This document shows, piece by piece, positions 6,507-47,702 of a DNA stretch of 64,000 bases; position 1 is the first letter of the stretch; every line of letters begins with the position of its first letter. Source of the DNA: Convolutriloba macropyga (Eukaryota). The notes below the pieces were generated by a model. It was not told the origin of the DNA. It worked only from the letters and a program-made list of their open reading frames with translations, and made no database searches. Both the position numbers and the translations under genes were made by a program. Location: assembly GCF_964194025.1 (NCBI RefSeq), contig NW_027451353.1, positions 62,001 through 126,000 on the forward strand. The letters are read 5' to 3'.

Positions 6507-8760
6507 ATGAAAAGATATCCTTGTTTTGAAAAACTCTATTTTTCTTATTTAGTTATAAGTCTTTCCTACTTTTGTACTCCTTTTATAGTTATTAACTCTA
6601 CTGAACCTATCCTTGACGATATAAATGATGTATCTAGCAAACTTAGGGTCATTCGTTATGACTGTTCTAAAATGAAAGAAAACAAAATGTATGCTCTAAC
6701 ACAAGTTTCTCCTTGCAAAATCACACCCGAAAACATTCAGATGGTTGATACACATGTAACACTTTGTCAGCGGTCTTATCGGACTTTTGTCAAAGCTCTT
6801 ATGTGCAAGGTCACTGCGATGCTCATTCGTTATAATTGCGGAATGTTTTCCTATTCATCAATTCTACACAACGCTCCAATAATAACATACAAAATTACAG
6901 CTTCGCCTGAACAACGTTTAAATGCTAAAAAAACTGAAAAAATTATTGTTACAGAAATTGATGATGATGACATGGAAATTGACATAAAACATGGAATAAG
7001 AACTGTCTCTTATAAAAACCAGGGATTTGATCTTGAAGGTGAATCATCAACATCTTGTGATAAATTGTGGTCAAATTAAACATTTTTCTTTTGGAACCTT
7101 GTTGCAAGAAACCGTACTCTATATTGATCTTAATGACAGAACTGTCTATAACAGTCAAGGACTAAAATTTCCTTGTGCCCTCTCAGAAGGAGGTTGTCAT
7201 TCGACATCACTCGACTACTTTCCTTACAATTGGGAGGCACCGGAAAATTGTATAGTTACTAAAAGTTTTTCACAAAAAGCTAAAAAGCATAAACATGAAT
7301 ACGAACTTGGTAACGTACAGTATTTCATAGTGAGTGATGAAAAACCGGAGACGCCCTATGAAGGACCAGGAACGTTTTCTCCTGCTGAAATGGATATAAA
7401 AGTTAGAGTAGTCTATGAAAAAGAAATTGTGTGTGGAAAACCTGAGTTTATTTACAGAACAAATTTAGATTCTATATATGTACAGGCGGATTTAATATGA
7501 AGTCTGGCAAACCTTATAAGTCAAAAACTCAACAATTTTTTTCATAAACTTCGTATTGATCCTGACAACAGCCGAAGTGTAAATGGGTTTAATAGGAAGC
7601 CTTCAGATGAACAGATTCGAACATTCGAAAATGGTTTTGTTGCATGGGAACACTTAGACAAAGACAAGTTAGACTATGATCTTAACCTTGCGGTAAAAAT
7701 GCAATTTGTCATATGTCATAATTACATGCAAATGAAACAAGCATGGTTCGGTCATAGAGGAATGCAAACTTGATCGAACTCAAAAACAAATGATAGACAA
7801 AGATAAAAGAAAACAAATGATAACAAATGCAGACTGTCCAAAATAATCGTTTAGCTGGATACATATTAACTGGCAACTGCTCGATCTTCTTAGACACAGA
7901 TGGTAGCATAGGTTGGCTGTACCACTGTCCAAAACGAAACTCACCAATTAAGGTTCATGATCAGTGTTCTGATAGGATTCCTATTCACTATGATGATGAG
8001 ACAATGTTCGTCGACCCAATTACTCGACAAACATATCCATTTGCTAACGAAGTTAATTGTATTGGAGGCTACAAAACGCCTACCAATTAGGTATTGATAA
8101 TGATAATTCATGGTACCATTTGATACCAGCACTTGTTCCTTTACAACCGCCAAAATTATTCTCTTCAAGAGTTGTTAGTTCTGTTCCAAAATTTACCGGT
8201 TACGAATAACAACGTGCCGGAATTTACACACCAAATCAATTAAAATCGTTTTGTGACCATATCTTGCATTCGGAAGCATCAAAATCAGTTTTGACAAAAA
8301 ATTCGAGAGAAGTTCTAGAAAGAAGAAGTATAGACTACTCACAAAAAGGCATCTATGCGTCCGCGATGGGCATAAATAGACAAATTTATCTAGACTCTCT
8401 ACTCTCAACTACATTTTTTACGGAGCAGTTCAAAGGCACTTTTGGAATTATCACTTTCTATCTGTAAAAAATTGGAGTTTATTTTGCTTGTTTCTTGTGC
8501 ATAAAATTCCTTACTGATGTAATTGTAACTATCATTAGAGCTTTCGAAATCCACAAAATATCCAAAAAAATGGGTTTTTGGAAAACTGAATTAGGAGCAA
8601 TTTATTATATTTGTATTTTATCGTTCTTTACACCGGTATTTTCTAACAAAACCACACCATCGGATCCAGAAAACACCAATCATTTTTTACCGCTTAGTAG
8701 TTATCAACCTTACATCACAATAGAAAAAATTACAAATGCGTTGAGGATCAACCAAGGGAA
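6507..8760 (+). pseudogene. env: Env-like viral fusion glycoprotein (chuvirus-G / gB-like class III type, inferred), frameshifted
   Basis: N-terminal signal-like segment, then YDCS..MYALTQVSPC, CKV..YNCGMFS, CALSEGGC, YNWEAPENC, VCGK..IYRTN, WLYHCP and CSDRIPI..FVDPITR..C. Hydrophobic segments at ~8440-8640. Located directly after pol. Confidence 0.8.
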
Positions 8761-9017
8761 ACTAAAATTGATGAGCATTATCATACTGAAAATAACAAAC
8801 CAACATACCCAAGTTTTGAGCCATATCAACCACAACCACAAAATGATGCTACCATTTGAAGTGAGATGGCACCGTCTTGGGGCTGTAACCAAGAAGGAAA
8901 AATCATCCTTTTTATATAAAAAAATTACTTTGTCTCAAAACAACATAAAAATTATTTGTATTAGACCCTACCAATTAGTTATTATCTTGTTTAGATACAC
9001 CTCAAGGATGCTATGTT

Positions 9018-11257
9018 ATGCAGCCCAAATTCATTAAACAGACTAACACCTTATTCATTCGATTTGGACAATACATTGGACAAATCTTATCAACAAGTAC
9101 TTCTACTTTAGGAACTACTGTAACTATTAGAGTTTCATCTTTCTATTTCAGTGACCTTATTGATCTGGACGTACCGCACTCAAATTTTCAATATTTCTTG
9201 TTGTTAAGAGCCCTGGTTGATAACACAACTACATTTGTAAACATTGGAATCGAATACAAAATTGTTTCAAAGCGCCTCAAGTAAAACCTTGCTAGATTTT
9301 GAATTCCCTTGTTAGTTCAACATTGAGAGAAATGTGCAGATTCCTTTCTTTCTTTTTATTTCTTATAATCCAATTATGACTGTTTAATCGCAATTATGTC
9401 TATCTGGCTATTGCCTGAACTCTTCCCCTACTCCGATTGTGCTACAGGGAATCCTATTGAAAGATGATCTATAAATAGTAATCGTTGTCAATAATCCTAC
9501 TTTCAGAAGTAACTGGCACCTTTATATCATCTATCTTTACAAATAAGCATACGTCCATACACAGCTATGAAATGAAAAACAAACAAAATATTAACTAAAA
9601 CGCCTCCATTAACGTACTTTTTATTTCAAGATCGACTTGTTACAATCTATCAAATAAAGAAAACATTTGAAGAAAATCACGGAGCCATTTTCGCTCAAAT
9701 TATTATAAAATTTGAGTTTTGGGACACTTGGGTAACGACAGTGTCATTTTAACCCCTCATTCGTTGTATTAGAACTATTTCGTGTATTTAGCACAGTTTG
9801 ATCCTAATAGTTTGCGTAGTGAACTAGACCAGCAAACATGACTCATCTCACTAATAGAAAACTACAATTCAGAATCGGAAATCAAATTTTTGAGCTTTTA
9901 GCCTTATGCAATGTTTCTGCTATAAGTATAATGACTTTCGTGAAAAAGCCTATGGCAGATATTTACAGATTTTTAACAATATTCATTACCCATACTCAAT
10001 TCGCCGAATTCATCATTTTTCTAGCTTACAAACAGACCCGATATTTTAAAGTTCAACATCCAATCTACATTGCTTATGTACAATTCCAAACTATGATATT
10101 TGCTGTTAACAATAAAATTGTAGGGTTGCACCAAAATCAACGATCTTTCGATGCATACCCAATTCCCGTACCTACCATACAAATAACACTCAAAAAAGAT
10201 CCAAAATGAAAAATTTGGTTTTTTAAGTATTAACCCTCTCTCAGTCCATTGGAAATTCTTCCTCTTTATTCTAGAAAATCCAAACTGTGTACCTCACAAT
10301 ATTTATTTTGATCTGCCAAAAACTGATTCTTCCAAAACGATTCAATCACTAATGAGTTGGAAACAAAAACAATAATAATATTATCATACCAAAATTGCCT
10401 AGTACAAATTCAATTTTTTGAAAAATCATTTGTCACGACAAAATGCCACAGAGTAATCCCACAACTAATACTCCATTTTGAATATTTAAACACTTGGACT
10501 AATGGCAATATTACCTTAACGCCATCTTCCCCCTATTGGACATTTCTTATAAATATATCCCAGGCTTTAAGCGGCTCAAAAATCCCTTTTAATTTAGATC
10601 TTCTGTAATGCTGTTCCATTTTGGTGAGCGCCTAGTCAAAGTAGAGTCCCTCGAGAGATCGTTCACTGAAATTTCCACCGCAGAGATTAAACCCTGTATA
10701 ATAATCAATTATACAGACTACGAACATGGATGCGAGGGTTCTAATCGACTCACCATGTGAATGATGCACTGGTAAATTTTTCTAGCACTCATTGATATCA
10801 AAGAACACTTCCCAGTCAACTTGGGCGCTCTTGAGTAAAATAATTCAGTTTACAGAAAAAACTTTTTTCCCTTTAAACATTTTTTTCGCCAGCTCATTTT
10901 TTTCCCTTTCCATCTCTCTTTCTGTTAATTCATCTCTATTCAAATAAGTTAGTTACTTCCTCGTCGTTTTTTTTTGTGTTGTTAAAAACAATGATTTTAT
11001 TCGTTGGTAAGGAAAAAGTTAAAATTGTTAAAGTAGAAAGATGGTTAACTTTTTGTTACTTACAGTATGAATCCAGCAACAAAATAACTTATATGTTCCT
11101 AAGCACAGGTACCCTTAACCATTATTGCATTTATCCAGACGAGAAACACTGGAATCGCTTTTTTGCTATTGCAGATTTAAATGTAACTATCCCCAATGAA
11201 CTCAAATACCATGGATCAGAAGTCTCATGCCCAAATATCTCTGATTTGTCCATATAA
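9018..11257 (+). CDS. Tandem array of small (~80-95 aa) divergent paralogous accessory ORFs of unknown function; several frameshifted
   Basis: Shared pattern by eye: FLFQDRLVTIYQIKKTF (~9620), MIFAVNNKIVGLHQNQRSF (10093), LSYQNCLVQIQFFEKSF (10357 ORF), MLFHFGERLVKVESLERSF (10608) and MILFVGKEKVKIVKVERW (10991). C-terminal P-x3-[HY]W-x2-hydrophobic motif (NPLSVHWKFF, TPSSPYWTFL, YPDEKHWNRF). Confidence 0.65.
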
Positions 11258-11655
11258 TGGGAAACATTTTGAAAATATACTCTCAGCAACTACAAACTGA
11301 TAAAACCCCAATAATGGAATGCCCTATTTTTTACCTGCCTTGCCGTCAATTCAAAAAATTGCACAAAAACCCAAATGGTCAACCTCCCCATTTTGCTTGC
11401 ATCCCCTGTAGAAATGAGTTATTTAAATATTGGAATCAAGATAATTGCCCCATTTGCGTACCTCCCATTTATACAGTCACTAATTGCCATTATTTCCAGT
11501 GTAATACTTGTCAAGAAATCAAAAAGTTGTCCACTTGCCACAGTCATTTCAAAGACTTACACCCAAAAAAAACCTTTTGTTTGCAGTGTATGACCTTCAC
11601 AACTACAAAATGCCCTTTATGTAAACAAACAATTGACCCAAACAATCCGTGGTAA
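11257..11655 (+). CDS. Double RING-like zinc-finger accessory protein (copy 1), 132 aa
   Basis: HFACIPC..CPIC..YFQCNTC..H..FCLQC..KCPLCKQTI; open frame; starts MG; its ATG overlaps the previous stop (TAATG). Confidence 0.75.
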   Translation: MGNILKIYSQQLQTDKTPIMECPIFYLPCRQFKKLHKNPNGQPPHFACIPCRNELFKYWNQDNCPICVPPIYTVTNCHYFQCNTCQEIKKLSTCHSHFKDLHPKKTFCLQCMTFTTTKCPLCKQTIDPNNPW

Positions 11656-11693
11656 AATCTTCGATTCAAAATTTTGTTTGCAAACTATTCAAA

Positions 11694-11893
11694 ATGTTTA
11701 CACCTACATTACTTGATTTTTTATTAATGGCCCTCATGATCATGCAGCAGCCTTTTCTTTCGTTTTAACCATTTTCCTTGTAGCTGTAAGTATTCCTTTC
11801 AATTTTTTGATGTTAATAGTTATATTAGTAAAAAACCGAACAATAAAATCCCAAGGTAATCAACAACCAAATCCTCCAACCGTATCAGCTTAA
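11694..11893 (+). pseudogene. Small single-pass membrane protein ORF (frameshifted)
   Basis: Manual translation AAAFSFVLTIFLVAVSIPFNFLMLIVILVKNR...; frameshift in the T-run near 11720. Confidence 0.45.
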
Positions 11894-11925
11894 ACACAAT
11901 CGCCTCCAATGACATTCTTTCAAAA

Positions 11926-12306
11926 ATGAATACTATTGACAAAGAAACCAATACTGAAGAATCCAAACCGGTCACATTCATTTGCCTGTGCTGCAAACGC
12001 GCGAAACGATAGTTTTCAACAAAATAATATGAAAACTTCCCAAACGAATTACACCACGTGATGTGTCTGCTTTGTTATCAATATGTTATAAAAGATATGG
12101 GTTATGATTTTTGTACCAAATGCTCTAAATTTAATGTTATCTTTTCAATCCTTAACTGGTTTCAATGTGATATTTGCAGACAAACAAGATTTCAATACTC
12201 TGTTGCAAAAACATTTCATCACAGTGATCATAAGCCCATCAACTTTTGTAAATTTTGCGTAAAAGGTTACAACTTATGCCCTCTTTGCAAAAAAACAATC
12301 ACCTAA
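11926..12306 (+). pseudogene. Double RING-like zinc-finger accessory protein (copy 2), two in-frame stops
   Basis: ATG 11926 is in frame with ORF 12058: FICLCCK..HVMCLLC..FCTKC..WFQCDIC..FCKFC..LCPLCKKTI, which aligns with copy 1. Confidence 0.75.
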
Positions 12307-12312
12307 TCTAAA

Positions 12313-12450
12313 ATGCGTCCAAAAACTTCCAAAATTTTAATTCCTTTCCTGGTTTTACTTTTAGTCCACTTGATATCCCTAATCCAATTCAGTTTTTACC
12401 AGGAACAAGTCACCTTTTTCACCCTATTTCTTCACTACTCAGTGATATGA
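12313..12450 (+). CDS. Small hydrophobic ORF (45 aa)
   Basis: MRPKTSKILIPFLVLLLVHLISLIQFSF...; starts 6 nt after the previous stop and ends 4 nt before the next ATG. Confidence 0.4.
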   Translation: MRPKTSKILIPFLVLLLVHLISLIQFSFYQEQVTFFTLFLHYSVI

Positions 12451-12454
12451 CAAA

Positions 12455-12649
12455 ATGCACCCCATAATATTGTTTATTCTTTTATTTGCTCTGCTGAGCG
12501 TATTGGCAATATCATTTTTATCAACTATTATCTCCTTTATGCAATCGGCCAAATTTTTTCCAGATACGGAAGATGACCGATCTAGATCTCACAACAAAAA
12601 TATTTATCCTAATCTTAATTACCTTACTTGCCATATCGTTCCTCATTAA
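12455..12649 (+). CDS. Small single-pass membrane protein ORF (64 aa)
   Basis: MHPIILFILLFALLSVLAISFLSTIISFM hydrophobic stretch followed by a polar tail with IYPNL. Confidence 0.5.
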   Translation: MHPIILFILLFALLSVLAISFLSTIISFMQSAKFFPDTEDDRSRSHNKNIYPNLNYLTCHIVPH

Positions 12650-12718
12650 TCTCATCCTACTTCAATTTCTCGAAGGTTTTCCTGTTTTTGTCTAAGAAAA
12701 ATAAAAAACAGTCACTCA

Positions 12719-13090
12719 ATGGGTCTCTCACAATCCCTACTTGACAGTTTTCGTTGGCTCTATCCCAATAAGGACATTATTTGCACAATATGTTCGCTCA
12801 AAACCGTTATTGTAGAAAAACTAAACAAATGATTCCCCAAAGAAAATCCACACTATGTATGTATTCCTTGCAGAAAGGCCCTTTTTAAAAGATACTCAAA
12901 CCCTAAATATCCCATCTGTCTTCGACCCTGTCTTCCCGTCCCGATTCTACTTCCGATGCAATTTATGCAAAAAAAAGAAAACAGAATTAAGAGTAACAAA
13001 ACACCCACATTTTTCCCAACATGAGGATCGTCGATTCTGTCCAGTATGGATAAAAAAGCAGACAAAATGTCCCATTTGAAAAAATTTTTT
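12719..13090 (+). pseudogene. Double RING-like zinc-finger accessory protein (copy 3), N-myristoylation-type start
   Basis: MGLSQS..ICTIC..HYVCIPCRKALFK (cf. HFACIPCRNELFK), then a frameshift to YFRCNLC..RFCPV..KCPI*. Confidence 0.7.
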
Positions 13091-13422
13091 AGTCGACGTT
13101 GTTTAATAAACCAAAAACAACTCGAGTCAAAACGACCTTTTTTCACATTTTTCACCTTTTCCTCGGGAAGGGGTCACCTCAGCTTTCTCCAGCTTGCCCT
13201 CCCGGGCTTTAGAACCTACATAAGTTGGAATATCTAGCCAAAATTTCATCCATTTAATAATCTCCTTCATGGCCATTTACATAACAATCTTAATCTTATG
13301 CAACATATTTCAAATTCTTCTTTCCTTCCTTGAAGAGGGAATAAAGTTTATCTTATGGGCTTAAATCTACGGTGGAACACTAGCAGGATAATTGAAAAAT
13401 GATAAAAATAATCTCTTTCTTT

Positions 13423-13556
13423 CAGCTCAGCAAGTTTGTCTCCCCAGCTGCACGGGTCGTTCCAACCGTGTTAGTGTGACACACGCCCCAAGACTCACAC
13501 CTCCGGGCAGCGGAGAAAAACGTACTTGTGCCAGGGCTGCCCGCCTGGCATAAGTA
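13423..13556 (+). promoter_or_regulatory. Structured cis-RNA element: consecutive hairpins with complementary (kissing) loops
   Basis: 13-bp stem TACTTGTGCCAGG/CCTGGCATAAGTA (one G-U) with loop GCTGCCCG, complementary to CGGGCAGC (13504-13511) in hairpin CTCC..GGAG. Upstream stems CAGCT/AGCTG, CACGG/CCGTG and GTGTGA/TCACAC. Confidence 0.55.
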
Positions 13557-13773
13557 TAAAATTTTTTATTATTCCACCCTCTTTCATTAAATAAACTTTG
13601 CAGGTAGCAAAAAAACTTTTCTACCAAACTTTGATAAAAAATGCATTTAGCATTATAATTTGTAAAGAAAGCAGTTAGCAATAAAACCTTACAAGAACAT
13701 TTTTAGAATTGAATTCTTTTTTATATTAGCAATACATTTGCAAACATGAAATAGAAGCCATAATGTGTGATAA

Positions 13774-14996
13774 TTGAGGACACAGGCTAACCAAAAGAAA
13801 AAATTTTACATTATCAACAAGAAGCGGAAAGAACTAGAAATGGCAGCCAAGAAGATCCCAAGCTTCATTATTCCCGTTCAAAGTCAAACGCCGCACCATC
13901 TAACAATCAACAACAAGCACAGATCCATCAAACACCAATTCCCGCTTTCTCAAGCCCACCATTCAAACCTCGAATCACAGTAACCCAAACGGCCAAAAAC
14001 AGCTCAGAATTTTACCCACAATACAACTGACAAGTTAGCAGAAAGGGACCAATCACAACCCAACAAATTAGTAGTCACAAAAACAAAATTATTAAGCTTA
14101 TCAACATTGAAGATCTCGTTCCCGACGCTATCAGAAAAATACCTTCAGAAGGCTTGGAATTGCAGAAACCACGAGAGGAGAACATGGGCAAAGAGAACCC
14201 GAGGTACGTTAACACCCTTCTCTATTTCTTCAAACCAAAGTGAAACAAATTCGAGGTTGCTGATAAAATAAACATCATCCAGTTAAATGGACATCAATAA
14301 CTATTAGCCAACAGCGAAAAACTTCCAGTTCTAAAAACTTTCTCGCTTCCCACAGATAACAGCAAATAGAGAATTAAAAATCTTGACCCTAAGAAGGGCA
14401 CCTATATCCTTAGAAATAACTTGGTCGACGTATACATTGAAATCCCCTATGATGCAATTTCTGCTTTTCCTGTCGAGATGCCAGAACTGACGAATATCAA
14501 TACCAGTAAGCTAATAGAAGAAAACACCAAATTTAGTCAGGAACTATTTCAAAAGGAAACAGAGTTGCAAGAACTGCAACTGAAATTCGAACAACTAAAA
14601 ATGGAGTCGCAGAAACTACCAGAGGAGAAACAACAACCTAACGACTATTGGCAGCGCCAATGTGTCGTTGCCCATCAACTTCAAAAAACCAGCGAATCGA
14701 ACGCAAAAACAATGTTAAAAACGTTTTCTTTGAAACATTTAGAAATAACAAATGCCAACAAAAACCGGAGAAAAGAATCTGGAGCTAGGAAAGAAAATAA
14801 CTCAATTAATGAAGGAAAACGTAGAACAAAAAGCCAAAATTTCCGAACTCAAAAGAAAGGTAAAAATTACAAAAAACGACAGTCGATGGATAAAAACGAA
14901 CCTATTGAAGACGATATACAGAAAGTTCTTTTAATCGAAGACGATGACAGTCCAGTAACAAGCCCGGTCATCTTACCACCAGAATTCTTTAACTAA
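13774..14996 (+). pseudogene. Terminal accessory ORF with coiled-coil region, frameshifted
   Basis: Overlapping ORFs 13774, 14421 and 14752 with heptad-like E/K/Q/L-rich sequence (ELFQKETELQELQLKFEQLK; LGKKITQLMKENVEQKAKISEL). Confidence 0.5.
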
Positions 14997-15055
14997 CATG
15001 GTCACCACCCTTTGCGGTTTATTTTGCATCTCACCACTCCAGTTCTTTTACAGCT

Positions 15056-15190
15056 TTTTGCGATCTTTTTATAGCACAAATGTATCGCCTTTTGCGGTCT
15101 TTTTTATAGCACAACTTTATCGCCATTTGCGATCGTTTTTATAGCACAACATTATCGCCCTTTGCGATTGATTTTGTATTACGACGCCAT
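15056..15190 (+). repeat. ~35-bp tandem repeat in the 3' UTR of the retroelement
   Basis: About 4 copies of TTTGCG(A/G)TC..TTTTATAGCACAA...TATCGCC. Confidence 0.8.
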
Positions 15191-15367
15191 CAAGCCTCGT
15201 ATTTAACCAACTCCTGCAAACTTCGCAACCAACCTACATTGGCAACCTCCAACTCAATTGATTACAACCCCAATCAATGGAAGCTTGAACAAAACTCAGA
15301 ACTTACCTGACCTTCATTTAAAAGTTTTATATGATGTAGAATAATTTATTAAATCTGTTTCTCACTG

Positions 15368-15382
15368 AAAATTGGGGTGAGC
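15368..15382 (+). other. Polypurine tract (candidate)
   Basis: AAAATTGGGGTGAGC immediately followed by TGTA. Confidence 0.6.
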
Positions 15383-16704
15383 TGTAGTATTACGAGAGCC
15401 AATACAAATGAAAGAATAAATAATTTTGCATTACAACGAACGCTTTTAGGCGTTAATTAACCATTATATCGCTGCGCGCTGAACAAATTAACGCTTGTTA
15501 AGACTACCAGTACACAAGTATTTAAACTACTTAGATCGACTTATTTAAATTAACACAACTTTAGGCCTGGATCTCCTCGCTTATATCCAGGATAGAAAAT
15601 GTACGTTGTTGAGCGTAGGCGGTCTGTATAACCACACTTTCTTTTGATTTATATCACTTCAGCTTTTGACAGTTGCATTGCAGATCTCTTCCCCCAAGTT
15701 CAATAAGATGAAGCAGATTACTTCAGGGGAAAAGACAATAGAGTCTCATAAAAAGCCCCCAGGAAAACCATAATTGTTGCGGTTTTAGAAGAGGGGAAAA
15801 GCAGAAAACAGGCGCCTACGTGATCAATAATTGATGCTCTCAGCTTTTTAGATTTTTATTAATTTTTGGATTTTCAATCATTTTTCCTTGAGATAAAAAA
15901 GAGTTAATTCTCTTGCCTTCTCGGCCCATAGGAAAATGAAGAAGCACCTCACTATGAATGTGAGTTTGTGATTTGCTCCCCATTGGCCCAAATTGAGCTG
16001 AGATGAATTTGTAAATTCTCTCAGCGAAGTGGGACGGAATAAAGGTAGAGAGACAGAAACAAGAACCAGAAATCAGCTGCAGACAACTGCTTTCCTATTT
16101 TTTGATAAATAGCTCTAAATTCAGAACAGAGATTGCTTATAACTTTCAAACAGAAAATACTCAAAATACACAGTTTAAACAACTTAACTTACAATTTCTT
16201 CATTAAATCTTATAAGTTTTTTTCCCGTCTAAACTGAAAATCTAACCGACTAACAAGAAGAACTGAACGATCGCTACTCAGCTCATCTCGATATCACAAC
16301 AATGCAACTGGTAATTAGTAAGCTGTAACTTTATATTTATTTTTTATAAATTAAACACTTTCTGCCCCCCCCCCCCCAACAATTTTAAATTGAGACTTAT
16401 AGCACAGACTGGTCTTGGGCATATATCTTTGCCTTCGATTTGTTATATCTTTTGTGTCAAGTAAGACTGACATACATAAAAAGATCCCTTATCGTGTGAT
16501 CTGTAGCAGCCCAGCCTAATTTGATACATCAACTTAAGTTCTCTCCTGATCATCAGGCAAAACATCAATCATGAGCAAAATTTTAATTTGGTTTTAGCCA
16601 AAATTATCTATAATAGCTTGGTGACCACTACCAGTTGTCATAAACCGAAGTACTCCTTTTTAACGTCGCCAGTAAGTGTACAACAAAACAACAAACCACT
16701 TACA
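15383..16704 (+). repeat. Probable 3' LTR (right end tentative)
   Basis: Begins TGTAG after the PPT; candidate end ..CTTACA at 16704 (TGTA/TACA). The 5' LTR is outside the window, so this is unconfirmed. Confidence 0.45.
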
Positions 16705-19700: not shown

Positions 19701-20187
19701 TTCAGAAAAATCCTAATAACCTTCTCTCTTGATTTTCAACTTATTTGAACTTTGAAGTAGAAATTAATCAGTTTTTTTAATCTCATTCACATCAACAACG
19801 TTTTTGGCGACTTTGGTTTTATGAATCTATATTATTAAAACTTTGCCATGGACATCTGTATGCTTTTGATGTCCAGTATTTCAGTCAACTGCAGTCCCAG
19901 GTATTGTCAGATCAAACCAATTTTGTGCAGTCACAGTTTTCAATTAAAGATCAATTGTGCAGTTCAATAACTCTATTTTTCCCATAAGTATCTTTTCATT
20001 CCGAAAGCAAAACTTTAAGATTTTTTCTTGTCGTTTTTCGAACAAACTGTTCAGACTTTAAAAACAATTAGCAAAAAGTGAACTTGATAACTTGACTATC
20101 ATGCAGTTTAAATTACTACAATTATTATAGATACCGTTTTTTTATTATGAGATCGGATCCGTCATTTTTTGTTTAAAAAAAGCTCAC

Positions 20188-20440
20188 CTGGATTATTGGA
20201 CGGGGCACTGTGGTCTGTGTGGGGGTGTCTGCTCTCATCTGCCTCTTGGGTGGGACTGTGCTGTGTGATGAAACTCTTCTCTCTGGGGGTGGGTGTAATT
20301 GGGGGCAGGGGGTCCCTTTTGAGTGCAAATGTGTCCCACATAATGTTTTCAACACCAGCTTCCTTTGATTTGTTGATGCACTCTTCCAGGTAGCCCAGGG
20401 GGTCTTCTGGCCGAGAGTACATCAGACCAGTCAGCATGCT
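20188..20440 (-). CDS. AK5: Adenylate kinase 5-like, coding exon 2 (dimerization/docking domain)
   Basis: SMLTGLMYSRPEDPLGYLEECINKSKEAGVENIMWDTF..PLPPI resembles AK5 SLLNGLMCSKPEDPVEYLESCL..WDTF..LPPL. Acceptor TTCCAG at 20441-2 and donor GTGAG at 20187. Confidence 0.88.
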
Positions 20441-21439
20441 CTGGAATGTGAACAAATCAATACACAGAATCTCTTCATTCAAATTAGAATGAAAAAAATT
20501 TTAAACAGATAAAGTAACAATACTAATAATGACAAATTGTTGGTAAATAAATGGTCCCTAGACTCGAGAAACGGTACCATTTCGAAAATTACAATGTACA
20601 AATACATCAGAAAAAATTGTCGCTACAAGACACTAAAATGTAACCATAATCCTAACAATTAGGTATTTACTCAGCTATAGATAGGCACAACCACACTCGA
20701 CCGCAAAGTGGTGTAAAAAAACATGCTCGACCGAAATTGCCGAATACCTTTTTCTCAACCCTTATGATCTCTTGCATATTCTCAGATGCACAAAATTGGG
20801 TTGAACTGAAGTCAAATTATGAGACCAGGAAACAACTTTTAGCGCAACAACCTTTCCAACGAAATCAAAACGCATTCAAATTGAGTTTTTATCAACAACA
20901 GTTAAATTTGTTTTCCACAGTAAAAACTTTCCGCAGAAAATTATCAGTTCTTTGTCAATCACCTAAACAAAAAAAGGGAAAAATTTTGAAACATTAAAAA
21001 ACATGATTTTTCTTCTACTGTTAAACTGTTTTTTTTTACCGAGCTGGGGTTTCATTCTCTTATAACATTATTTGTTACTAATCCACTTCTCCTCTGAAGC
21101 TCCTAAAAAATTGAAAATCGGGATTTATCGATTTTTAACATGAATGAAGAAAACCATGTGAAAAAAAAACAATCTACCTGCATTTTTTTATTCTTTGTTC
21201 TGTTTGCTTTTTTGTTTCTCGAATATTATTTTCAGTAAAACGAAAACAGTACCCTGTTTTTTGTGTTGATTTTGGAAACCTATTTTCTCACGGGTAAACT
21301 CCTCAAAATAAAACAAAGATCTTGTTCAATATTTGTGGATATAAGCACCACTTCCCAAACAAGCAATTGTTGAATATCATTCATTGTTTAATTGATATAA
21401 GCATTATAATTCAATTCTGCAACTATCTCAAAAAAAGGG

Positions 21440-28849: not shown

Positions 28850-31800
28850 ACTGAAGGAATTTTTTGCTTGAAGCAAAATTGTCCGAAACAACAAAGAAGG
28901 TAGGTTATCAAAAAAATACTTAGAGGGCACTATCATCGTAGAAGTTAAAATTTCGTTTTTTTTCTGTTAGATTTTTTTGATAGCAAATATCATCCAACCA
29001 GGCTTCAAAAAAATCCGGCGGTGATTTTTGTATTTATTGTGTATAATTAAGCGTGATAACTTGAGATTTGTCAGAAAAAAATGGTTTTTGAAAAATTTCA
29101 TTAAAAGTTTCAGTCTTTTCTTTAAATGACAAGGAATCCTGTCTTTCCTCAGCTTTCTTTTCACGGTTGTTGCATTCAAACAGAACATGCAATGGAGGGC
29201 AAGATGTAGCTAAAAGAACGTTTTCCTTGAAAACAATACTGTTCGAAACAACAAAGAAGGCAGATTATCTGAAAAAAAACACTTATTGGCCCGATGGGCG
29301 TATAAGCGTAGAAGTTGTTATTTTTTGTTATAGTTTGTTTAAGATAACAAATATCATCTGACCATGCTTCGAAAAATCTGGCGTCGATAGTTTTTTTTAT
29401 AAGTCAGTGTGTACATTTTTGCGAGATGACTCGCAATTTGTCAGAAAAAATTAGTTTTTGAAAAGTTTGAGTGAAACTTTTTATTTTCTTTAAATGAAAA
29501 CGAACCTTCTCTTTTCTCAGCTTTCTTTTCACAGTTGTTGCAGTCAAACAGAACATGCAATAGAGGTCAAGATGTAGCTAAAAGAACGTTTTGCTTGAAA
29601 ACAATACTGTTCGAAACAACAAAGAAGGCAGATTATCTGAAAAAAAAACACTTATTGGCCCGATGGGCGTATAAGCGTAGAAGTTGTTATTTTTTGTTAT
29701 ACTTTGTTTAAGATAACAAATATCATCTGACCATGCTTCAAAAAATCTGGCGTCGATAGTTTTTTTATAAGTCAGTGTGTACAATTTTGCGAGATAACTC
29801 GCAATTTGTCAGAAAAAATTAGTTTTTGAAAAGTTTTAGTGAAACTTTTTATTTTCTTTAAATGAAAACGAACCTTCTCTTTTCTCAGCTTTTTTTTTCA
29901 CAGTTGTTGCAGTCAAACAGAACATGCAATAGAGGGCCAGATGAAGCCAAAGGAAAGCTTTGCTTGAAAATGAAACTGTTCGAAACAACAATGAAGACAG
30001 ATTATCAGAAAAAACACTTATTGACCCGATGGGCGTAGAAGCGTAAAAGTTGTTATTTTTTTGGGTTAGTTTGTTTAAGATAACAAATATCATCCGGCCA
30101 TGCTTCAAAAAATTTGGCGTTGATAGTTTTTATAAGTCAGTGAGTATAATTTTAAGAGATAACTCGCAATTTGTCAGAAAAAAATTAATTTTTGAAAAGT
30201 TTGAGTGAAATTTTTTGTTTTTTTAAATGACAACGAACCTTGTCTTTTCACAGTTTTCTTTTCACAATTGTTGCAGTCAAACAAAACATGCAATAGAGGT
30301 CAAGATGTAGCCAAAGGAAGGCTTTGCTTGAAAATAAAACTGTTCGAAAGAACAATCAAGGCAGATTATCAGGAAAAACACTTATTGGACCGATGGGCGT
30401 AGAAGCGCAGAAGTTGTTTTTTTTGTGTTAGTTTGTATGAGATAACAAATATTTCAGCATAGTTACTTCAATCAACTCATTTCATAATTACGAGAGTTAC
30501 AAATATGTATTACATTTTAGTACAAGAGGAAAAGAATTTCGTTTTTTGCTGTCAATCTTTAATTTTGTCCATTTTGATAAAAAATAGTTTTCTTAAATTC
30601 CATTAAACTTCGACGTGTACTTGCTCTAATGATCCGTGTTTATTCCTTTTTTTCAATCAAAGTGTACCCAAAACTGCTTACTGTGTCACAAGAAGATAAT
30701 TTACTGTTGTGTTCGTTCAGTTGAACCTGTGGTTTTTCAGGAAATTTTTAAAGTGTTTTATAGAAACACTGAATATCTTTAAAGACTGTCTGTTTTTGAG
30801 GATATAGAAGTAATAATAGGCACCAAAATAATTTCCAACCTTGAATTTATTACTGGTAGTGCAGTTTGATTTCAATATTATCAATGTAAGGGCTTAATAA
30901 TTATCATATTGTAAGAAATCTGGAAACTTTTTACAAAATTTTATCCTACATTTTTTTTGTTCTTTTATCTAGTTCTGCATTATTGGTCATTTGATGTTTT
31001 AAAGTTATTTTGTTTCAGCACGAAATTGGTTTCAGCACTACTGCTGTGATCAATTTTTATGGAAACCGTTATAAAAGGAAAGAAAATCGTTCGGAACTTT
31101 GGGAGCAAAAAATTAGACATGAAGAGAAACTCCTTACCTTATAACTTTTTATTTAAGGAATCAAAACTTACTTTCAATAGCGCAATATAACGCTCAAAAT
31201 ATGACCTTGGAAACATTATCAAGAAAAGGTAGTTTAGAGGGAGATAAAAGCTCTTTTTTGCCAATTTTTTCCTAAAATATCATTAAATTGACCTCAATTT
31301 GCAAATCATTGCTGAATATGTTTTACAGACAGCAAATACCCTATATTTCTACAGCCAAAGGAAGGCTTTGCTTGAAAAAAACTGTTTGAAACAAAAAAGA
31401 GGGCAGATTATCAGAAAAAAAACTTATTGGCCCGATGGGCGTAGAAGCGTAGAAGTTGTTAGTTTTTTGTGTTAGTTTGTTCAAGATAAGAAATATCATC
31501 CCACAATGCTTCAAAAAATTTGGCAATGGTAGTTTTTATAAATCAGTGAGGATAATTTTGCGAGATAACTTGCAAATTGTCAGAAAAAAATTTGTTTTTG
31601 AAAAGATTGATTGAAATTTTTTGTTTTTTTTAAATGACAACGAACCTTGATTTTTCTCAGCTTTTTTTCACAGTTGTTGCAGTCAAACAGCACATGCAAT
31701 AGAGGGCAAGATGTAGACGAAAGAAGGCTTTGCTAGAAAAAAAACTGTTCGAAACAACAATCAAGGCAGATTATCAGAAAAAACACTTATTGGACCGATG

Positions 31801-34800
31801 GGCGTAGAAGCGTAGAAGTTGTTTTTTTTGTGTTAGTTTGTATAAGATAACAAATATTTCAGCATAGTTACTTCAATCAACTCATTTCATAATTACGAGA
31901 GTTACAAATATGTATTACATTTTAGTACAAGAGGAAAAGAATTTCGTTTTTTGCTGTCAATCTTTAATTTTGTCCATTTTGATAAAAAATAGTTTTATTA
32001 AATTCCATTAAACTTCGACGTGTACTTGCTCTAATGATCCGTGTTTATTCCTTTTTTTCAATCAAAGTGTACCCAAAACTGCTTACTGTGTCACAAGAAG
32101 ATAATTTACTGTTGTGTTCGTTCAGTTGAACCTGTGGTTTTTCAGGAAATTTTTAAAGTGTTTTATAGAAACACTGAATATCTTTAAAGACTGTCTGTTT
32201 TTGAGGATATAGAAGTAATATTAGGCACCAAAATAATTTTCAACCTTTGAATTTTTTACTGGTAGTGCAAGTTGGTTTCAATATTATCAATGTAAGGGCT
32301 TAATAATTATCATATTGTAAGAAATCTGGAAATTTTTACAAAATTTTATCCTACATTTTTTTTGTTCTTTTATCTAGTTCTGCATTATTGGTCATTTGAT
32401 GTTTTAAAGTTATTTTGTTTCAGCACGAATTTAGTTTCAGCACTATTGCTGTGATCAATTTTTATGGAAACCGTTATAAAAGGAAAGAAAATCGTTCGGA
32501 ACTTTGGGAGCAGAAAATTAGACATGAAGAGAAACTCCTTACCTTATAACTTTTTATTTAAGGAATCAAAACTTACTTTCAATAGCGCAATATAACGCTC
32601 AAATTATGACCTTGGAAACATTATCAAGAAAAAGTAGTTTAGAGGGAGATAAAAGCTCTTTTTTGCCAATTTTTTCCTAAAATATCATTAAATTGACCCC
32701 AATTTGCGAATCATTGCTTAATATTTTTCACAGACAACAAATACCCTATATTTCTACAGCCAAAGGAAGGCTTTGCTTGAAAAAAAATGTTTGAAACAAA
32801 AAAGAAGGCACATTATCGGAAAAAAAACTTATTGGCCCGATGGGCGTAGAAGCGTAGAAGTTGTTAGTTTTTTGTGTTAGTTTGTTCAAGATAAGAAATA
32901 TCATCCCACTATGCTTCAAAAAATCTGACAATGGTAGTTTTTATAAATCAGTGAGGATAATTTTGCTAGATAACTTGCAAATTGTCAGAAAAAAATTTGT
33001 TTTTGAAAAGATTGATTGAAATTTTTTGTTTTTTTTTTAAATGACAACGAACCTTGTCTTTTCTCAGATTTCTTTTCACAGTTGTTGCAGTCAAACAGAA
33101 CATGCAATAGAGGTCAAGATGTAGCCAAAGGAAGGCCTCGCTTGAAAATAAAACTGTTCGAAACAACAATCACGGCAGATTATCAGAAAAAACACTTATT
33201 GGACCGATGGGCGTAGAAGCGTAGAAGTTGTTTTTTTTTTGTGTTAGTTTGTTTAAGATAACATATATTTCAGCATAGTTACTTCAATCAACTCATTTCA
33301 TAATTACGAGAGTTACAAATTTGTATTACTTTTTTGTACAAGAGGAAATGAATTTCGTTTTTTGCTGTCAATCTTTAATTTTGTCCATTTTGATAAAAAA
33401 TAGTTTTCTAAAATTCTATTAAACTTCGACGTGTACTTGCTCTAATGATCCCTGTTTATTCCTTTTTTTCAATCAAAGTGTACCTAAAACTGCTTACTGT
33501 GTCACAAGAAGATAATTTACTGTTGTGTTCGTTCAGTTGAACCTGTGGTTTTTCAGTTAATTTTTAAAGTGTTTTATAGAAACACTGGAAAACTTTAGAA
33601 ACTGTCTGTTTTTGAGGATATAAAAGTAATATTAGGCACCAAATTAATTTCCAATTTTTGAATATTTTACTGGCAGTGCAGTTTTGTATCAATATTATCA
33701 ATATAAAGGCTTAATAATTATTATATTGTAAGAAATCTGGAAACTTTTTACAACAATTTATCCTACATTTTTTTGTTCTTTTATCTAGTTCTGCATTATT
33801 GGTCATTTGATGTTCTAAAGTTATTTTGTTTCAGCACTAACTTAGCTCGAAAATCTGCTGCTGTGATCAATTTTTATGGAAACCATTATAAAAGGAAAGA
33901 AAATCGTTCGGAACTTTGGGAGCAAAAATTTAGACATGAAGAGAAACTCCTTACCTTATAACTTTTTATTGAAGGAATCAAAACTTATTTTCAATAGCGC
34001 AATATAACGCTCAAAATATGAGCTTGAAAACATTATCAAGAGAAGGTAGTTTAGAGGGAGATAAAAGCTCTTCTTTTGCCAATTTTTTCCTAAAATATCT
34101 TAAAATTGACCTCAATTTGCGAATCATTGCTTATTTTTTTTACAGACAGCAAATACCCCATATCTCTACAGACAAAAGAAGGCTTTGCTTAAAAAAACTG
34201 TTTGAAACAAAAAAGAAGGCAGATTATCAGAAAAAACTCTTATTGGCCCGATGGGCGTAGAAGCGTAGAAGTTGTTATTTTATTTGTGTTAGTTTCTTCA
34301 AGATAAGAAGTATCATCCTACTATGCTTCAAAAAATCTGGCAATGGTAGTTTTTATAAGTCAGTGAGGATAACTTTGCGAGATAACTTGCAAATTGTCAG
34401 AAAAAAATTTGTTTTTGAAAAGTTTGATTGAAATTTTTTGTTTTTTTTAAATGAAAACGAACCTTCTCATTTCTCAGCTTTCTTTTCACAGTTGTTGCAG
34501 TCAAACAAAACATGCAATAGAGGTCAAGATGTAGCCAAAGGAAGGCTTTGCTTGAAAATAAAACTGTTCGAAACAACAATCACGGCAGATTATCAGAAAA
34601 AACACTTATTGGACCGATGGGCGTAGAAGCGTAGAAGTTGTTTTTTTTTGTGTTAGTTTGTTTAAGATAACATATATTTCAGCATAGTTACTTCAATCAA
34701 CTCATTTCATAATTACGAGAGTTACAAATTTGTATTACTTTTTTGTACAAGAGGAAATGAATTTCGTTTTTTGCTGTCAATCTTTAATTTTGTCCATTTT

Positions 34801-37800
34801 GATAAAAAATAGTTTTCTAAAATTCTATTAAACTTCGACGTGTACTTGCTCTAATGATCCCTGTTTATTCCTTTTTTTCAATCAAAGTGTACCTAAAACT
34901 GCTTACTGTGTCACAAGAAGGTAATTTACTGTTGTGTTCGTTCAGTTGAACCTGTGGTTTTTCAGTTAATTTTTAAAGTGTTTTATAGAAACACTGGAAA
35001 ACTTTAGAAACTGTCTGTTTTTGAGGATATAAAAGTAATATTAGGCACCAAATTAATTTCCAATTTTTGAATATTTTACTGGCAGTGCAGTTTTGTATCA
35101 ATATTATCAATATAAAGGCTTAATAATTATTATATTGTAAGAAATCTGGAAACTTTTTACAACAATTTATCCTACATTTTTTTGTTCTTTTATCTAGTTC
35201 TGCATTATTGGTCATTTGATGTTCTAAAGTTATTTTGTTTCAGCACTAACTTAGCTCGAAAATCTGCTGCTGTGATCAATTTTTATGGAAACCATTATAA
35301 AAGGAAAGAAAATCGTTCGGAACTTTGGGAGCAAAAATTTAGACTTGAAGAGAAACTCCTTACCTTATAACTTTTTATTGAAGGAATCAAAACTTATTTT
35401 CAATAGCGCAATATAACGCTCAAAATATGAGCTTGCAAACATTATCAAGAGAAGGTAGTTTAGAGGGAGATAAAAGCTCTTCTTTTGCCAATTTTTTCCT
35501 AAAATATCTTAAAATTGACCTCACTTTGCGAATCATTGCTTATTTTTTTTTACAGACAGCAAATACCCCATATCTCTACAGACAAAAAAAGGCTTTGCTT
35601 AAAAAAACTGTTTGAAACAAAAAAGAAGGCAGATTATCAGAAAAAACTCTTATTGGCCCGATGGGCGTAGAAGCGTAGAAGTTGTTATTTTATTTGTGTT
35701 AGTTTCTTCAAGATAAGAAGTATCATCCTACTATGCTTCAAAAAATCTGGCAATGGTAGTTTTTATAAGTCAGTGAGGATAACTTTGCGAGATAACTTGC
35801 AAATTGTCAGAAAAAAATTTGTTTTTGAAAAGTTTGATTGAAATTTTTTGTTTTTTTTTAAATGAAAACGAACCTTCTCATTTCTCAGCTTTCTTTTCAC
35901 AGTTGTTGCAGTCAAACAAAACATGCAATAGAGGTCAAGATGTAGCCAAAGGAAGGCTTTGCTTGAAAATAAAACTGTTCGAAAGAACAATCAAGGCAGA
36001 TTATCAGGAAAAACATTTATTGGACCGATGGGCGTAGAAGCGTATAAGTTGTTTTTTTTTGTGTTAGTTTGTTTAAGATAACATATATTTCAGCATAGTT
36101 ACTTCAATCAACTCATTTCATAATTACGAGAGTTACAGATTTGTATTACTTTTTTGTACAAGAGGAAATGAATTTCGTTTTTTGCTGTCAGTCTTTAATT
36201 TTGTCCATTTTGATAAAAAATAGTTTTCTAAAATTCTACTAAACTTCGACGTGTACTTGCTCTAATGATCCGTGTTTATTCCTTTTTTTCAATCAAAGTG
36301 TACCTAAAACTGCTTACTGTGTCACAAGAAGATAATTTACTGTTGTGTTCGTTCAGTTGAACCTGTGGTTTTTCAGTTAATTTTAAAGTGTTTTATAGAA
36401 ACACTGAAAAACTTTCGAAACTGTCTGTTTTTGAGGATATAAAAGTAATATTAGGCACCAAATTAATTTCCAATGTTTGAATATTTTACTGGCAGTGCAG
36501 TTTTGTATCAATATTATCAATATAAAGGCTTAATAATTATCATATTGTAAGAAATCTGGAAACTTTTTACAACATTTTATCCTACATTTTTTTGTTCTTT
36601 TATCTAGTTCTGCATTATTGGTCATTTGATGTTTTAAAGTTATTCTGTTTCAGCACTAACTTAGCTCGAAAATCTGTTGCTGTGATCAATTTTTATGGAA
36701 ACCATTATAAAAGGAAAGAAAATCGTTCGGAACTTTGAGAGCACAAAATTAGACATGAAGAGAAACTCCTTACCTTATAACTTTTTATTTAAGGAATCAA
36801 AACTTTTTTTTCAATAGCGCAATATAACGCTCAAAATATGAGCTGGCAAACATTATCAAGAGAAGGTAGTTTAGAGGGAGATAAAAGCTCTTCTTTTGCC
36901 AATTTTTTCCTAAAATATCTTCAAATTGACCTCAATTTGCGAATCATTGCTTATTTTTTTTTTACAGACAGCAAATACCCCATATCTCTACAGACAAAAG
37001 AAGGCTTTGCTTAAAAAAAACTGTTGGAAACAAAAAAGAAGGCAGATTATCAGAAAAAACACTTACGGGCCCGATGGGCGTAGAAGCGTAGAAGTTGTTA
37101 TTTTATTTGTGTTAGTTTGTTCAAGATAAGAAGTATCATCCTACTATGCTTCAAAAAATCTGGCAATGGTAGTTTTTATAAGTCAGTGAGGATAACTTTG
37201 CGAGATAAATTGCAACTTGTCAGAAAAAAATTTGTTTTTGAAAAGTTTGATTGAAATTTTTTGTTTTTTTTAAATGACAATGAACCTTGACTTTTCTCAG
37301 CTTCTTTTCACAGTTGTTGCAGTCAAACAGAACATGCAAAAGAGGCCAAAAAGTAGCCGAAAGAAGGCTTTGCTTGAAAAAAACTGTTCGAAACAACAAT
37401 CAAGGCAGATTATCAGAAAAAACACTTATTGGACCGATGGGCGTAGAGGCGTAGAAGTTGTTTTTTTTGTGTTAGTTTGTTTAAGATAACAAATATTTCA
37501 GCGTTGTTACTTCAATCAATTCTTCTCATAAATACGAGAGTTACAAATAAGTATTACATTTTAGTACAAAAGGAATTGAATTTTGTTTTTTGCTGTCAAT
37601 CATTAATTTTGTCAATTTTGATAAAAAATAGTTTTCTTAAATTCTATTAAACTTCGACGTGCACTTGCTCTAAGGATCCATGTTTATTCGTTTTTTTCAA
37701 TCAAAGTGTACCTAAAACTGCTTACTTTGTCACATGAAGATAATTTACTGTTGTGTTCGCTCAGTTGAACCTGTGATTTTTCAGGAAATTGTTAAAGTGT

Positions 37801-38390
37801 TTTATAGAAACACTGAAAATCTTTAAAGACTGTCTGTTTTTGAGGATATAGAATTAATATTAGGCACCAAAATAATTTCCAACCTTTGAATTTTTTACTG
37901 GTAGTGCAGTTTGGTTTCAATATTATCAATGTAAGGGCTTAATAATTATCATATTGTAAGAAATCTTGGAACTCTTTACAAAATTTTATCCTACATTTGT
38001 TTTGTTCTTTTATCTAGTTCTGCATTATTGCTCATTTGATGTTTTAAAGATATATTGCTTCAGCTTTAATTTAGCACAAAAATCTACTGCTGTGATCAAT
38101 TTTTATGGAAATCGTTATAAAAAGAAAGAAAATCGTTCGAAACTTAAAAATTGTGAGCAAAAAATTATACATGCAGAGAAACTCCTTAACTTATAACTTT
38201 TTATTTAATGAGTCAAAACTTATTTTCAATAGCGCAAAATAACGCTCAAAATATGAGCTTGCAAACATTATTAAGAGAGGGTAGTTTAGAGGGAGATAAA
38301 AGCTCTTCTTTTGCCACTTTTTTCCTAAAATATCTTAAAATTGACCTCAATTTGCGAATCATTGCTTAATAATTTCTTACAGACAGCGAA
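28850..38390. repeat. Satellite: ~365-bp monomers changing into ~1.41-kb higher-order units (~6 copies)
   Basis: Marker GATGGGCGTA at ~29293, 29662, 30028, 30392, then in pairs at 31434/31797, 32839/33206, 34250/34616, 35660/36027 and 37073/37435. Confidence 0.95.
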
Positions 38391-39229
38391 TACAGCATAA
38401 TTCTACAGCAAATTATTCAGCTCATTTCATGCGCATTTTGAAAATATAATTTACTATTATGCTCTTCCTACATTTTATCAACAAAATTTTGCTTTGATTG
38501 GGCGGTACTTTTGCCCAATATGTGGTAATAAAACGTTTTTTTTTAAGTTTAGCAGTTGAATAACTTTTATCTAGCTTTTGTTACCCGGGTTACCATAGCT
38601 CATTTTAAAGCTTATTTTACGTTCGTTAAGAATATTGCAAATTTACTTCGAAAAAAAGCATCAAATTGGCTAATTTTAGCATTTTTTTGAGGATACCAAT
38701 ATTCGAGGAATTCGACCTGTCAATGCTCAAAATCGTCGAATTAAAATTTTAGATTCACCGGACAAATGTTATATAGTTGTAAAGCCTATTATCTCCTCAG
38801 TTCAGAACCGTTTTTAATTTTTCAAACAAAGATCTCGTTCAGGAGATATTAGTGTTTTTTTGACCTATACCTCGAAAAATTCGAATTCCGATCAATTTTA
38901 GTTATGGTCACGTGTCAATACACGCTAACCGTCAGCAGGTATTTGTTGGCAAATAATGCTGTCGGGATGTATGCTTGTTTCTTGTGGATGGCATAGGCCA
39001 CTCTGGGCATAGGCCGTAGAATGTGGTCAGGGTCCCTCTTACACTTTTTTATTAAAGTGATTATAATCATTGTACTGTTCATTGTTTCAGATTAGTTGGT
39101 TATAAACGAAGTGTTATATGAAGAGTTATAAACGAAGTGGCACCGTAGAAAAACACAAAGGGTTGTTTATTTTGCTGACTGTATCTAATGGCTTCACAGT
39201 GAGTATTGTTAGGTATTATTATTATTAAA

Positions 39230-40765: not shown

Positions 40766-42057
40766 AAAGTTTTTGACCGTTTTTTCTTTTTGAGTACCTT
40801 TTACCTTTTAAGCCCTTGAGTTTCTACGTTTTGCGTGATCTAAAGTTCTCTCTTACTCACAATTTCAAGCAATCGAACTCAATTGTTGGGCAATTTAACA
40901 CTGAAGGTGAATTGACAAGTGCACCGAAATTGATGTCATTATCTCACTTCATCTAAAATACTCATAGTGATATGTTTTACTCGATTTGAGCCCTGTTTGT
41001 TAGTACAAAACCTCTTTTCTGTGTTATCACCAACAAACAGTCAAGTTGAATGAGTGCTGAAATTAAACTTGCGATTTTACAATTCTATGGAAAAAGCTGG
41101 TACTTTTAGAGGTTGATGATTTCAAATGAGTCAAAAAACTGGAATAAAAAGATCTGCTCGTGTGTTAGAAAAGGAAGCCTGTGCAAATGTATCGGCAGAT
41201 GATATAGTTTTGCCAGAAGATTGGAGGTTCATTTTTTCTTCGAAATTGATAGAACGTTTTCACTTGTTGAAGTGGAAAGCAAAACATGGCCAGCGAATTT
41301 CAAAAATTCTGAAAAACTGTCTCTCTCGGTCGGTGATGAAGTTACAATAAAATGTGGGTTCAATTACGATGATCCGCAATCAGGAAGCTGTAGGGTACAA
41401 GGGCACGAAATACATCTTGAAAAAATATTGAAGCAAGCATATAAGTTGAGGAGAGGAGGCCACGATGCTAGCAAAATTAACTGCTAAGAATTGTTGGAGC
41501 AACTGGTGAGCAATGAGAAGACAGTTCAATCGCAGGTAGTTGTTGAGAGTGGCCGTGAGAAAATTTTCCCAAAGTTTGCAAAGATGTTGCAATTCCGGTG
41601 CAAAGTACGCAAAATGACAAGGTCGCTGACTTGCCGGAACTTGACGATCAAATGGTTTATGATTTACTGAATAATGCGGCCGAAGTCCCTGCGCCATGTG
41701 GGTCCGGAACTCAGCGACATAAAACGTGCATGCAGCGTACAGATGAGGTAAAATGTTTCTTGTGCCTATAAAAAATGTCACAGCGCTCTGGAAGGGACGC
41801 ATGGCTTTTTGCTTTTAAATTTTACTAAAAATCAAAACTTGAATTTTAGTAAGTCTCATAAGTATTTTTTTGCTCTCTTGAGTTTTATCAAGTCTCAACC
41901 TCAATTAACTGATCCAAGGTTTTTTATAGTCATGTCACAGGCTCTGAAAGGACGCCTGGCAATAACTTTTTCTTCATTTCAAAACATACGCCAAAGTAAA
42001 ATGCCCTTTGTTTGTAATTTGAGGCAAATTCAATTTGCTTAACCATTTGATTTTTCA

Positions 42058-47660: not shown

Positions 47661-47702
47661 TTATGTTTTTCGCGGTGACTATGTAGCTATATTGCGCTTT
47701 TC

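Follow-up and report, generated by a model that had tools for sequence, protein, structure and literature searches.

Finishing one gene and then restarting at the next is rare in animals, and in eukaryotes the known cases of reinitiation after a long ORF are ORF pairs (caliciviruses, influenza B, SART1) and the caulimoviruses of plants, which have an activator. The locus described here, a decayed copy of an env-bearing, probably Ty3/gypsy-type retroelement in an animal genome with approximately 14 small ORFs in the 3.6 kb 3' of env, raises the question of how such an array is translated. The original prediction held that stop/start overlaps (ATGA at 9838-9841, TAATG at 10606-10610 and 11255-11259) and very short spacers reflect coupled translation of the array by termination-reinitiation. 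All three overlaps are present, and the ORFs at 12313 and 12455 start 6 nt and 4 nt, respectively, after the preceding stops.

The window analysed (64,000 nt, ~35% GC) is from an animal-like eukaryote, and positions 1 to ~16300 hold the 3' portion of an LTR retroelement that has decayed, with the 5' end outside the window; its features from env onward are on the + strand. The tail of gag and a broken pol precede env. In a Pfam scan, the broken pol piece matched reverse transcriptase (PF00078, E 6.6e-5) at 23.2 bits, below the 29.6 cut-off, and other pieces, judged by eye from their motifs, are presumably protease, RNase H and integrase. An 824-nt tandem duplication at 171-1800 spans the end of gag and the protease region. 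The env gene (6507..8859) contains stops and frameshifts, and its end was placed where the open frame closes at 8859. It matches PF24664 (Monjiviricetes_fusion) with E 2.8e-12 at 6507-7076 and 7.4e-5 at 7827-8087 (45.9 bits vs. a cut-off of 27). We take this Pfam family to correspond to the gB-type env class of PMC13524379. Between env and the array are a broken ORF that does not belong to the main array family (~8844-9284, with 88 aa open at 9018-9284 and no Pfam match) and a non-coding gap (9285..9566) with an acceptor-like AG at 9506 (ad hoc score) and a TATA-like word at 9470; TATA-like words in the element are at chance level (12 seen vs. 13.2 expected). A putative 3' LTR (15367..16330, end not fixed) begins with a purine-rich tract followed by TG at 15383, and no second copy lies within the window. 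Approximately 424 of 3701 places differ between this copy and aligned contigs (run X1; the aligned contigs are from four runs of one study, contig type unrecorded), which makes the copy an old member of a family with many copies. The 15 joints listed from this alignment all lack GT..AG ends, a result with no bearing on splicing. Junction positions do not appear among the 40 of 485 variants and 12 of 32 indels listed, and no conclusion was drawn from their absence. Scans of viral contigs, metagenome contigs and prokaryote genomes retrieved no relatives of the locus, and Rfam gave nothing at E<=1 over 8800-16400.

Other features occur elsewhere in the window. A second gypsy-like element (52472-59793), with 417-nt direct repeats that are 98.8% identical and an open pol frame of 1412 codons, is inserted in GGGTTTTAGGT-type satellite; we take an element of this kind to be typical of acoel genomes. 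A nested tandem array at 28850-38400 consists of ~368-nt units in ~1410-nt higher-order repeats, and decayed ORF pieces at 41000-48400 include what by eye are presumably a SET-domain-like fragment (45148-45618) and a DNA-transposase-like one (45800-47300). A probable host exon (20162-20500, - strand) has ordinary acceptor and donor sites and presumably encodes a sequence resembling a kinase dimerisation/docking domain.

Protein searches show that array genes are real. Five ORF families have 38-147 database members (clusters from ENA assemblies: A1, 119; A3, 38; A4, 116; A5, 147; RING1, 117; 15 members listed per cluster), and these multi-member clusters with mostly constant protein ends show that A1, A3, A4, A5 and RING1 are genuine genes. 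Among retrieved proteins, A3 is 77 aa in 16 of 19, A5 is 88 aa in 24 of 26 and RING1 is 132 aa in 13 of 15. A1 (9612..9841, mapped by tblastn; 76 or 80 aa in relatives) has lost its start (~9612) in this copy and is frameshifted near 9732, so that the upstream partner of the ATGA at 9838 is itself damaged. A2a (9838..10077) is 79 aa in relatives (7 of 11 retrieved proteins) and has lost its stop here, so the ORF in the window extends to 10209; this 123-aa reading frame (9838-10209) and a further ATGA at 10206-10209 were set aside as results of decay. A2b (10093..10375, end approximate; 94 aa in the relative P0055) is frameshifted near 10195, A3 (10375..10608, 77 aa) has lost its start (~10375), and A4 (10608..10838, 76 aa in relatives) has premature stops, the first at 10758-10760. 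A pyrimidine-rich gap of 152 nt (10839..10990, 68% C+T), with a top-decile acceptor-like AG at 10892, separates A4 from A5 (10991..11257, 88 aa), which is intact.

A1, A2b, A3, A4 and A5 are paralogues forming a family of ~77 aa (family A). A2b matches a profile built without it at E 3.4e-14; A2a has no match to a profile built without A2a, and amino-acid polymorphism patterns do not separate it from the other array genes. Both A2a and A2b are rarely retrieved, as singletons or from a cluster of 8 only. A family-A profile search yielded 29 representatives at 50% clustering, and several are ~30-50% identical to the genes in the window, so related element families carry the same gene family; A3- and A4-like genes are present in distant families. 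Family A matches no Pfam family, has no Atlas match and no Foldseek match at E<=0.001 (PDB, BFVD), and this family of at least five ORFs is undescribed and unannotated. A structural model of P0137, a member of the 10375-10608 family (pLDDT 89), has four strands and one helix. Its best structural rows are EF-P/eIF5A domain I (Z 4.0-5.4, rmsd 2.0-3.1, 50-54 residues aligned), and the top five are all EF-P/eIF5A N-terminal domains (Z 4.6-5.4); the predicted likeness is weak and within the range of common arrangements. Weak as it is, this likeness deserves notice in an array whose translation may require assistance.

The 3' half of the array encodes RING-like and hydrophobic proteins, and the seven ORFs 3' of RING1 are known from this copy alone. 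RING1 (11257..11655) is a Cys/His-rich protein of 132 aa starting with Met-Gly. It has weak Pfam RING matches (E 0.016-0.033) and no sequence match in PDB, and most of its Atlas neighbours are RING proteins of viruses; arenavirus Z is among them at 0.86, which we treat as a lead only. RING2 (11926..12306) is a broken paralogue, with indels near 12002-12026 relative to other copies, and RING3 (12719..13024) starts with Met-Gly and has one internal stop; the three are paralogues (z to RING1 of 7.9 for RING2 and 9.0 for RING3). We take the Met-Gly start of two of the three (11257, 12719) to be a possible myristoylation signal. Four hydrophobic ORFs are interspersed. TM0 (11694..11893) is apparently frameshifted, with a putative start and a hydropathy of 2.74, and TM1 (12313..12450, 45 aa) is the ORF that begins 6 nt after RING2; no relatives were retrieved for either. 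TM2 (12455..12649) begins 4 nt after TM1. A frameshift near 12514 is possible in TM2 (~1/5 of depth, run X1), in which case this ORF would end at 12576 and form an ATGA overlap with TM3 (12573..12695, 40 aa; z=3.9 to TM2). A candidate 63-aa ORF (13046..13237), the exact sequence of which is absent from the protein collection, closes the array. It is followed by ~520 nt of non-coding DNA, which includes a patch of 61% GC and a TATAAA at 13555, and by the last long ORF (approximately 13760..14996; ~410 codons, broken), with a coiled coil and a basic stretch. In a Pfam scan its last 172 aa gave a sub-threshold coiled-coil match only, with no TAV family. The placement of this ORF before the purine tract recalls the caulimoviral TAV or the internal-promoter genes of foamy viruses, a resemblance of position alone, not of homology.

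The junctions between these ORFs are tightly packed. The offsets from stop to start are -17 (or -4), +15, about +8, -1, +152, -1 and +38 nt for the first seven junctions and +32, +6, +4, -4 (with TM2 frameshifted; otherwise a 77-nt overlap), +23 and +21 nt for the last six. Thus, 12 of 13 junctions are within -17 to +38 nt, the consecutive arrangement with short overlaps and spacers that is expected of caulimovirus-type translation, and 8 of 13 place stop and start within ~20 nt, the spacing typical of TURBS (the value for A2b/A3 comes from one loose contig end). The overlap motifs are not enriched: TAATG occurs 8 times in 9501-13100 (5.3 ± 2.3 expected from shuffles) and ATGA 22 times (18.8 ± 3.7), and 31 of the 67 ATGs in this interval (57.6 expected) sit in one context or the other. 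Under a conditional null that leaves out A2b/A3, the number of exact overlaps does not differ from chance (3 of 12 junctions, p = 0.37; TAATG type, 2 of 12, p = 0.15). A TAATG context at the A1 start was rejected as a junction, there being no ORF upstream, and a distant gene call (P0120) suggests a junction in a frame class that can form neither TAATG nor ATGA. The signal is nearness, i.e. tight packing, and not the exact pentanucleotide.

The three overlaps differ in their conservation. The ATGA at 9838 is a minority form. Among 40 A1-type proteins, 14 are broken in other ways; of the 26 that can be classified, 19 continue for four codons past the ATGA and 7 end at it, like this copy. In the main A1 cluster, 12 of the 15 listed members have the longer form (one of them on 30 contigs) and 2 the short form. 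The usual A1/A2a overlap is therefore 17 nt and the ATGA is not conserved; one loose contig end at 9835 points to an A1/A2a spacing one base shorter in DNA. Relatives of four of the six A-block genes (A2a, A2b, A3, A5) start with Met-Ile, so an ATGA is obtained for free and this type of overlap is cheap.

The TAATG at 10606 appears to be the best-conserved junction, kept in two lineages that are ~51-56% identical to A4. In this copy, the upstream A3 has no start and A4 is interrupted. Three gene calls (P0099, P0101 and P0112; 51-56% identical to A4) cross A3/A4 in the A4 frame, and in all three the Met directly follows an Ile, with an Arg at -4. Ile at -1 and Arg at -4 are what the end of A3 followed by TAATG would yield in the A4 frame, and the shifted frame allows a stop exactly there. 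A close copy, P0073, has Val before the A4 Met, also compatible with TAATG (Ile, Val, Leu and Met account for 26% of sense triplets in the array). P0101 and P0112 are 86% alike, so the distant support comes from two lineages only, and it is indirect, relying on gene calls that are frameshifted or extended rather than on DNA. None of the contig pieces listed bridges A3/A4 by 31 letters on both sides.

The TAATG at 11255 is the only one of the three noted junctions with both partners intact in this copy. Ten of the 32 contig pieces listed (at least 3842 more exist) bridge A5/RING1, several of them being the same contig from different runs; 2 are gap-free (83% and 89% identity), 4 have one gap and 4 have 16 gaps. 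A read-through protein, P0010, crosses A5/RING1 in the same register. The contig register and the fixed protein ends on either side indicate that this overlap is kept in close copies.

Several translation routes make predictions that can be compared with the array. Leaky scanning of the RTBV/badnavirus type does not fit: internal AUGs number 4 in A2a, 3 in A2b, 2 in A3, 5 in A4 and 7 in A5, which argues against this route, with A1 alone lacking an internal AUG in this copy and some of the others private to it. A TURBS consists of a structured element, 40-87 nt upstream, that holds a motif complementary to 18S rRNA. Five junctions were tested for TGGGA, and the 100 nt upstream of each are free of it; it occurs once, 118 nt before A1/A2a, and at none of the other four. 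Given the 18S of this particular host and the decay of the copy, a variant of the motif is possible. No stable structure flanks the five junctions (z -0.96 to +1.66 vs. shuffles). SART1-type coupling uses UAAUG, as found at 10606-10610 and 11255-11259, and in this copy the 100 nt 3' of these two sites show no SART1-like hairpin (z +0.15 and +1.14, mononucleotide shuffles).

The reading that we tentatively place first, though we hold it with less than even confidence, is that a few subgenomic RNAs are each read onward by proximity-based reinitiation. The array grew by tandem gene duplication within an env-bearing Ty3/gypsy family, as the paralogy among its ORFs shows. Under cap-dependent translation, an array that lies behind env needs subgenomic RNAs, and these most likely enter at the few real non-coding gaps (ahead of A1, A5 and the last ORF) through splicing, trans-splicing or internal promoters. 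Good acceptor-like sites are present in the gaps before A1 (9506) and A5 (10892), and the 152-nt gap between A4 and A5 is likely the entry point of a second RNA. Within a block, ribosomes ending one 75-95-codon ORF would restart at the adjoining AUG, and restart would depend on nearness (-17 to about +20 nt) over the exact pentanucleotide, with no recognisable TURBS. True coupling is most plausible at A3/A4 and A5/RING1. The spacing fits, but long chains are costly: in TURBS viruses, stop-start pairs lie within 20 nt and reinitiation is 3-20% (PMC10275272), and at such a rate per step a fifth cistron would be starved unless reinitiation were boosted. The original prediction of a coupled accessory array is upheld in part: the element is a eukaryotic retroelement, the array is real, coupling is plausible, both TAATG registers are kept and leaky scanning is unfit, while the ATGA at 9838, a minority form, lacks the conservation that the prediction asked of the three overlaps, and a TURBS-like motif was not found.

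Nearly as likely is one spliced or trans-spliced 5' end per gene, so that each ORF comes first on its own mRNA. Acceptors within the upstream gene would be joined in cis to the 5' LTR or in trans to a spliced leader, giving a 3'-coterminal nested set, with the overlaps being the packing left by duplication. Tor elements express env by splicing or internal promoters (PMC4402516), and trans-splicing would be available if the host is an acoel, being used for 30.2% of Symsagittifera roscoffensis genes (PMC9911081). Of 15 array starts, 7 are preceded by a top-decile acceptor-like site with no AUG in between, compared with 13 of 55 AUGs elsewhere (p = 0.08). A2a and A4 each have an AG 10 nt ahead of their AUG, and the shift at A1/A2a is tolerated in the commonest subfamily. 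However, the acceptor score is ad hoc, and the count falls to 6 of 15 (p = 0.17) once the site at 10563, which is private to this copy, is dropped. Moreover, at RING1 no acceptor that is free of an intervening AUG scores above the 54th percentile, and in this copy 6 of 15 starts, including those of RING1, RING2, TM1 and TM2, lack any AG after the previous AUG. Individual mRNAs also leave unexplained the persistence of the A3/A4 register at ~50% protein identity.

We consider it doubtful that the array is operon-like, with serial reinitiation through three or more cistrons, in chains of up to five ~80-codon ORFs, on an unspliced or singly spliced RNA and without TURBS. We judge it slightly less probable still, and on balance unlikely, that the overlaps are neutral relics of duplication in AT-rich DNA, with block-leading ORFs well translated and inner ORFs expressed at low levels by mixed routes (A2a by leaky scanning, the others by internal promoters) and no dedicated coupling. 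The chance-level motif counts agree with this explanation, as does the rarity of A2a and A2b among retrieved proteins; A1 has no internal AUG in this copy, and A2a thus provides the next AUG. On the other hand, A3, A4 and RING1 keep their length and ends across many copies, and the constancy of these inner genes, together with the A3- and A4-like genes in distant families, points to selection on their expression; the many internal AUGs in the other ORFs also speak against it. Serial reinitiation boosted by a product of the element itself, either the last ORF (by its TAV-like position) or the family-A proteins (by their weak eIF5A/EF-P likeness), is very improbable.

The architecture is the solid novelty of this locus; the mechanism we infer. 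In the literature searched, which left most subscription journals and Repbase-type entries outside, no description was found of an env-carrying gypsy element whose 3' array holds a dozen duplicated small ORFs. Whatever the translation route, this gypsy element resembles complex retroviruses in having a ~77-aa family in at least five copies, three RING-like ORFs and four membrane ORFs. Under proximity-based reinitiation, an element with many copies in an animal genome and a dozen closely spaced junctions would be a test bed for the distance and frequency of post-termination restart, and the natural -4 vs. -17 polymorphism at A1/A2a is a built-in comparison for reinitiation distance.

Gypsy elements carrying env are widespread, and the errantiviruses with a gB-type env share with this element the gag-pol-env order, an animal genome, many copies and an env of a viral fusion-protein family, but the element described here has ~14 additional small ORFs behind env (PMC13524379). 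The main text of that work makes no mention of accessory or small ORFs, RING, splicing or reinitiation; its supplements may list related elements. Small accessory ORFs are found in the Drosophila MDG1 group, in which sORF1 and sORF2, one transmembrane and with predicted myristoylation, are carried on an unspliced gypsy-type RNA and were detected as peptides; these are two ORFs 5' of gag in env-less elements, in contrast to the 3' array here (PMC11952523). The planarian Burro element is likewise gypsy-like, with an env matching mononegavirus fusion proteins and RING-bearing accessory functions, but most of its functions are fused in one polyprotein of ~5000 aa rather than encoded by separate tiny ORFs (PMC6431247).

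With respect to translation, the array may work like a caulimovirus- or SART1-style coupled system, but it is not shown to be one, and the test for a TURBS motif was negative. Caliciviruses and influenza B have, as here, UAAUG or AUGA with stop and start within 20 nt, but their TURBS couple ORF pairs, whereas chains of up to five would be implied here, with no TGGGA in range (PMC10275272). The SART1 non-LTR retrotransposon likewise has a UAAUG stop-start within a retroelement; it has a single junction that needs a hairpin 34 nt downstream, in contrast to the many junctions of the present LTR element and their lack of stable downstream structure (PMC10275272, PMC5902531). The Caulimoviridae, which translate a polycistronic pregenomic RNA by TAV-activated reinitiation, are also reverse-transcribing and have a series of ORFs that overlap slightly, share a fused stop-start or lie a short spacer apart, and both they and this element have a last ORF with possibly separate expression (PMC5902531). 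Caulimoviruses overcome the cost of reinitiation with TAV and use splicing too, and according to a 2018 review no TAV-like activator was known outside this family (PMC5902531). The element described here differs from them in its animal host, its integrating LTR form, its short duplicated accessory ORFs and the lack of demonstrated TAV homology.
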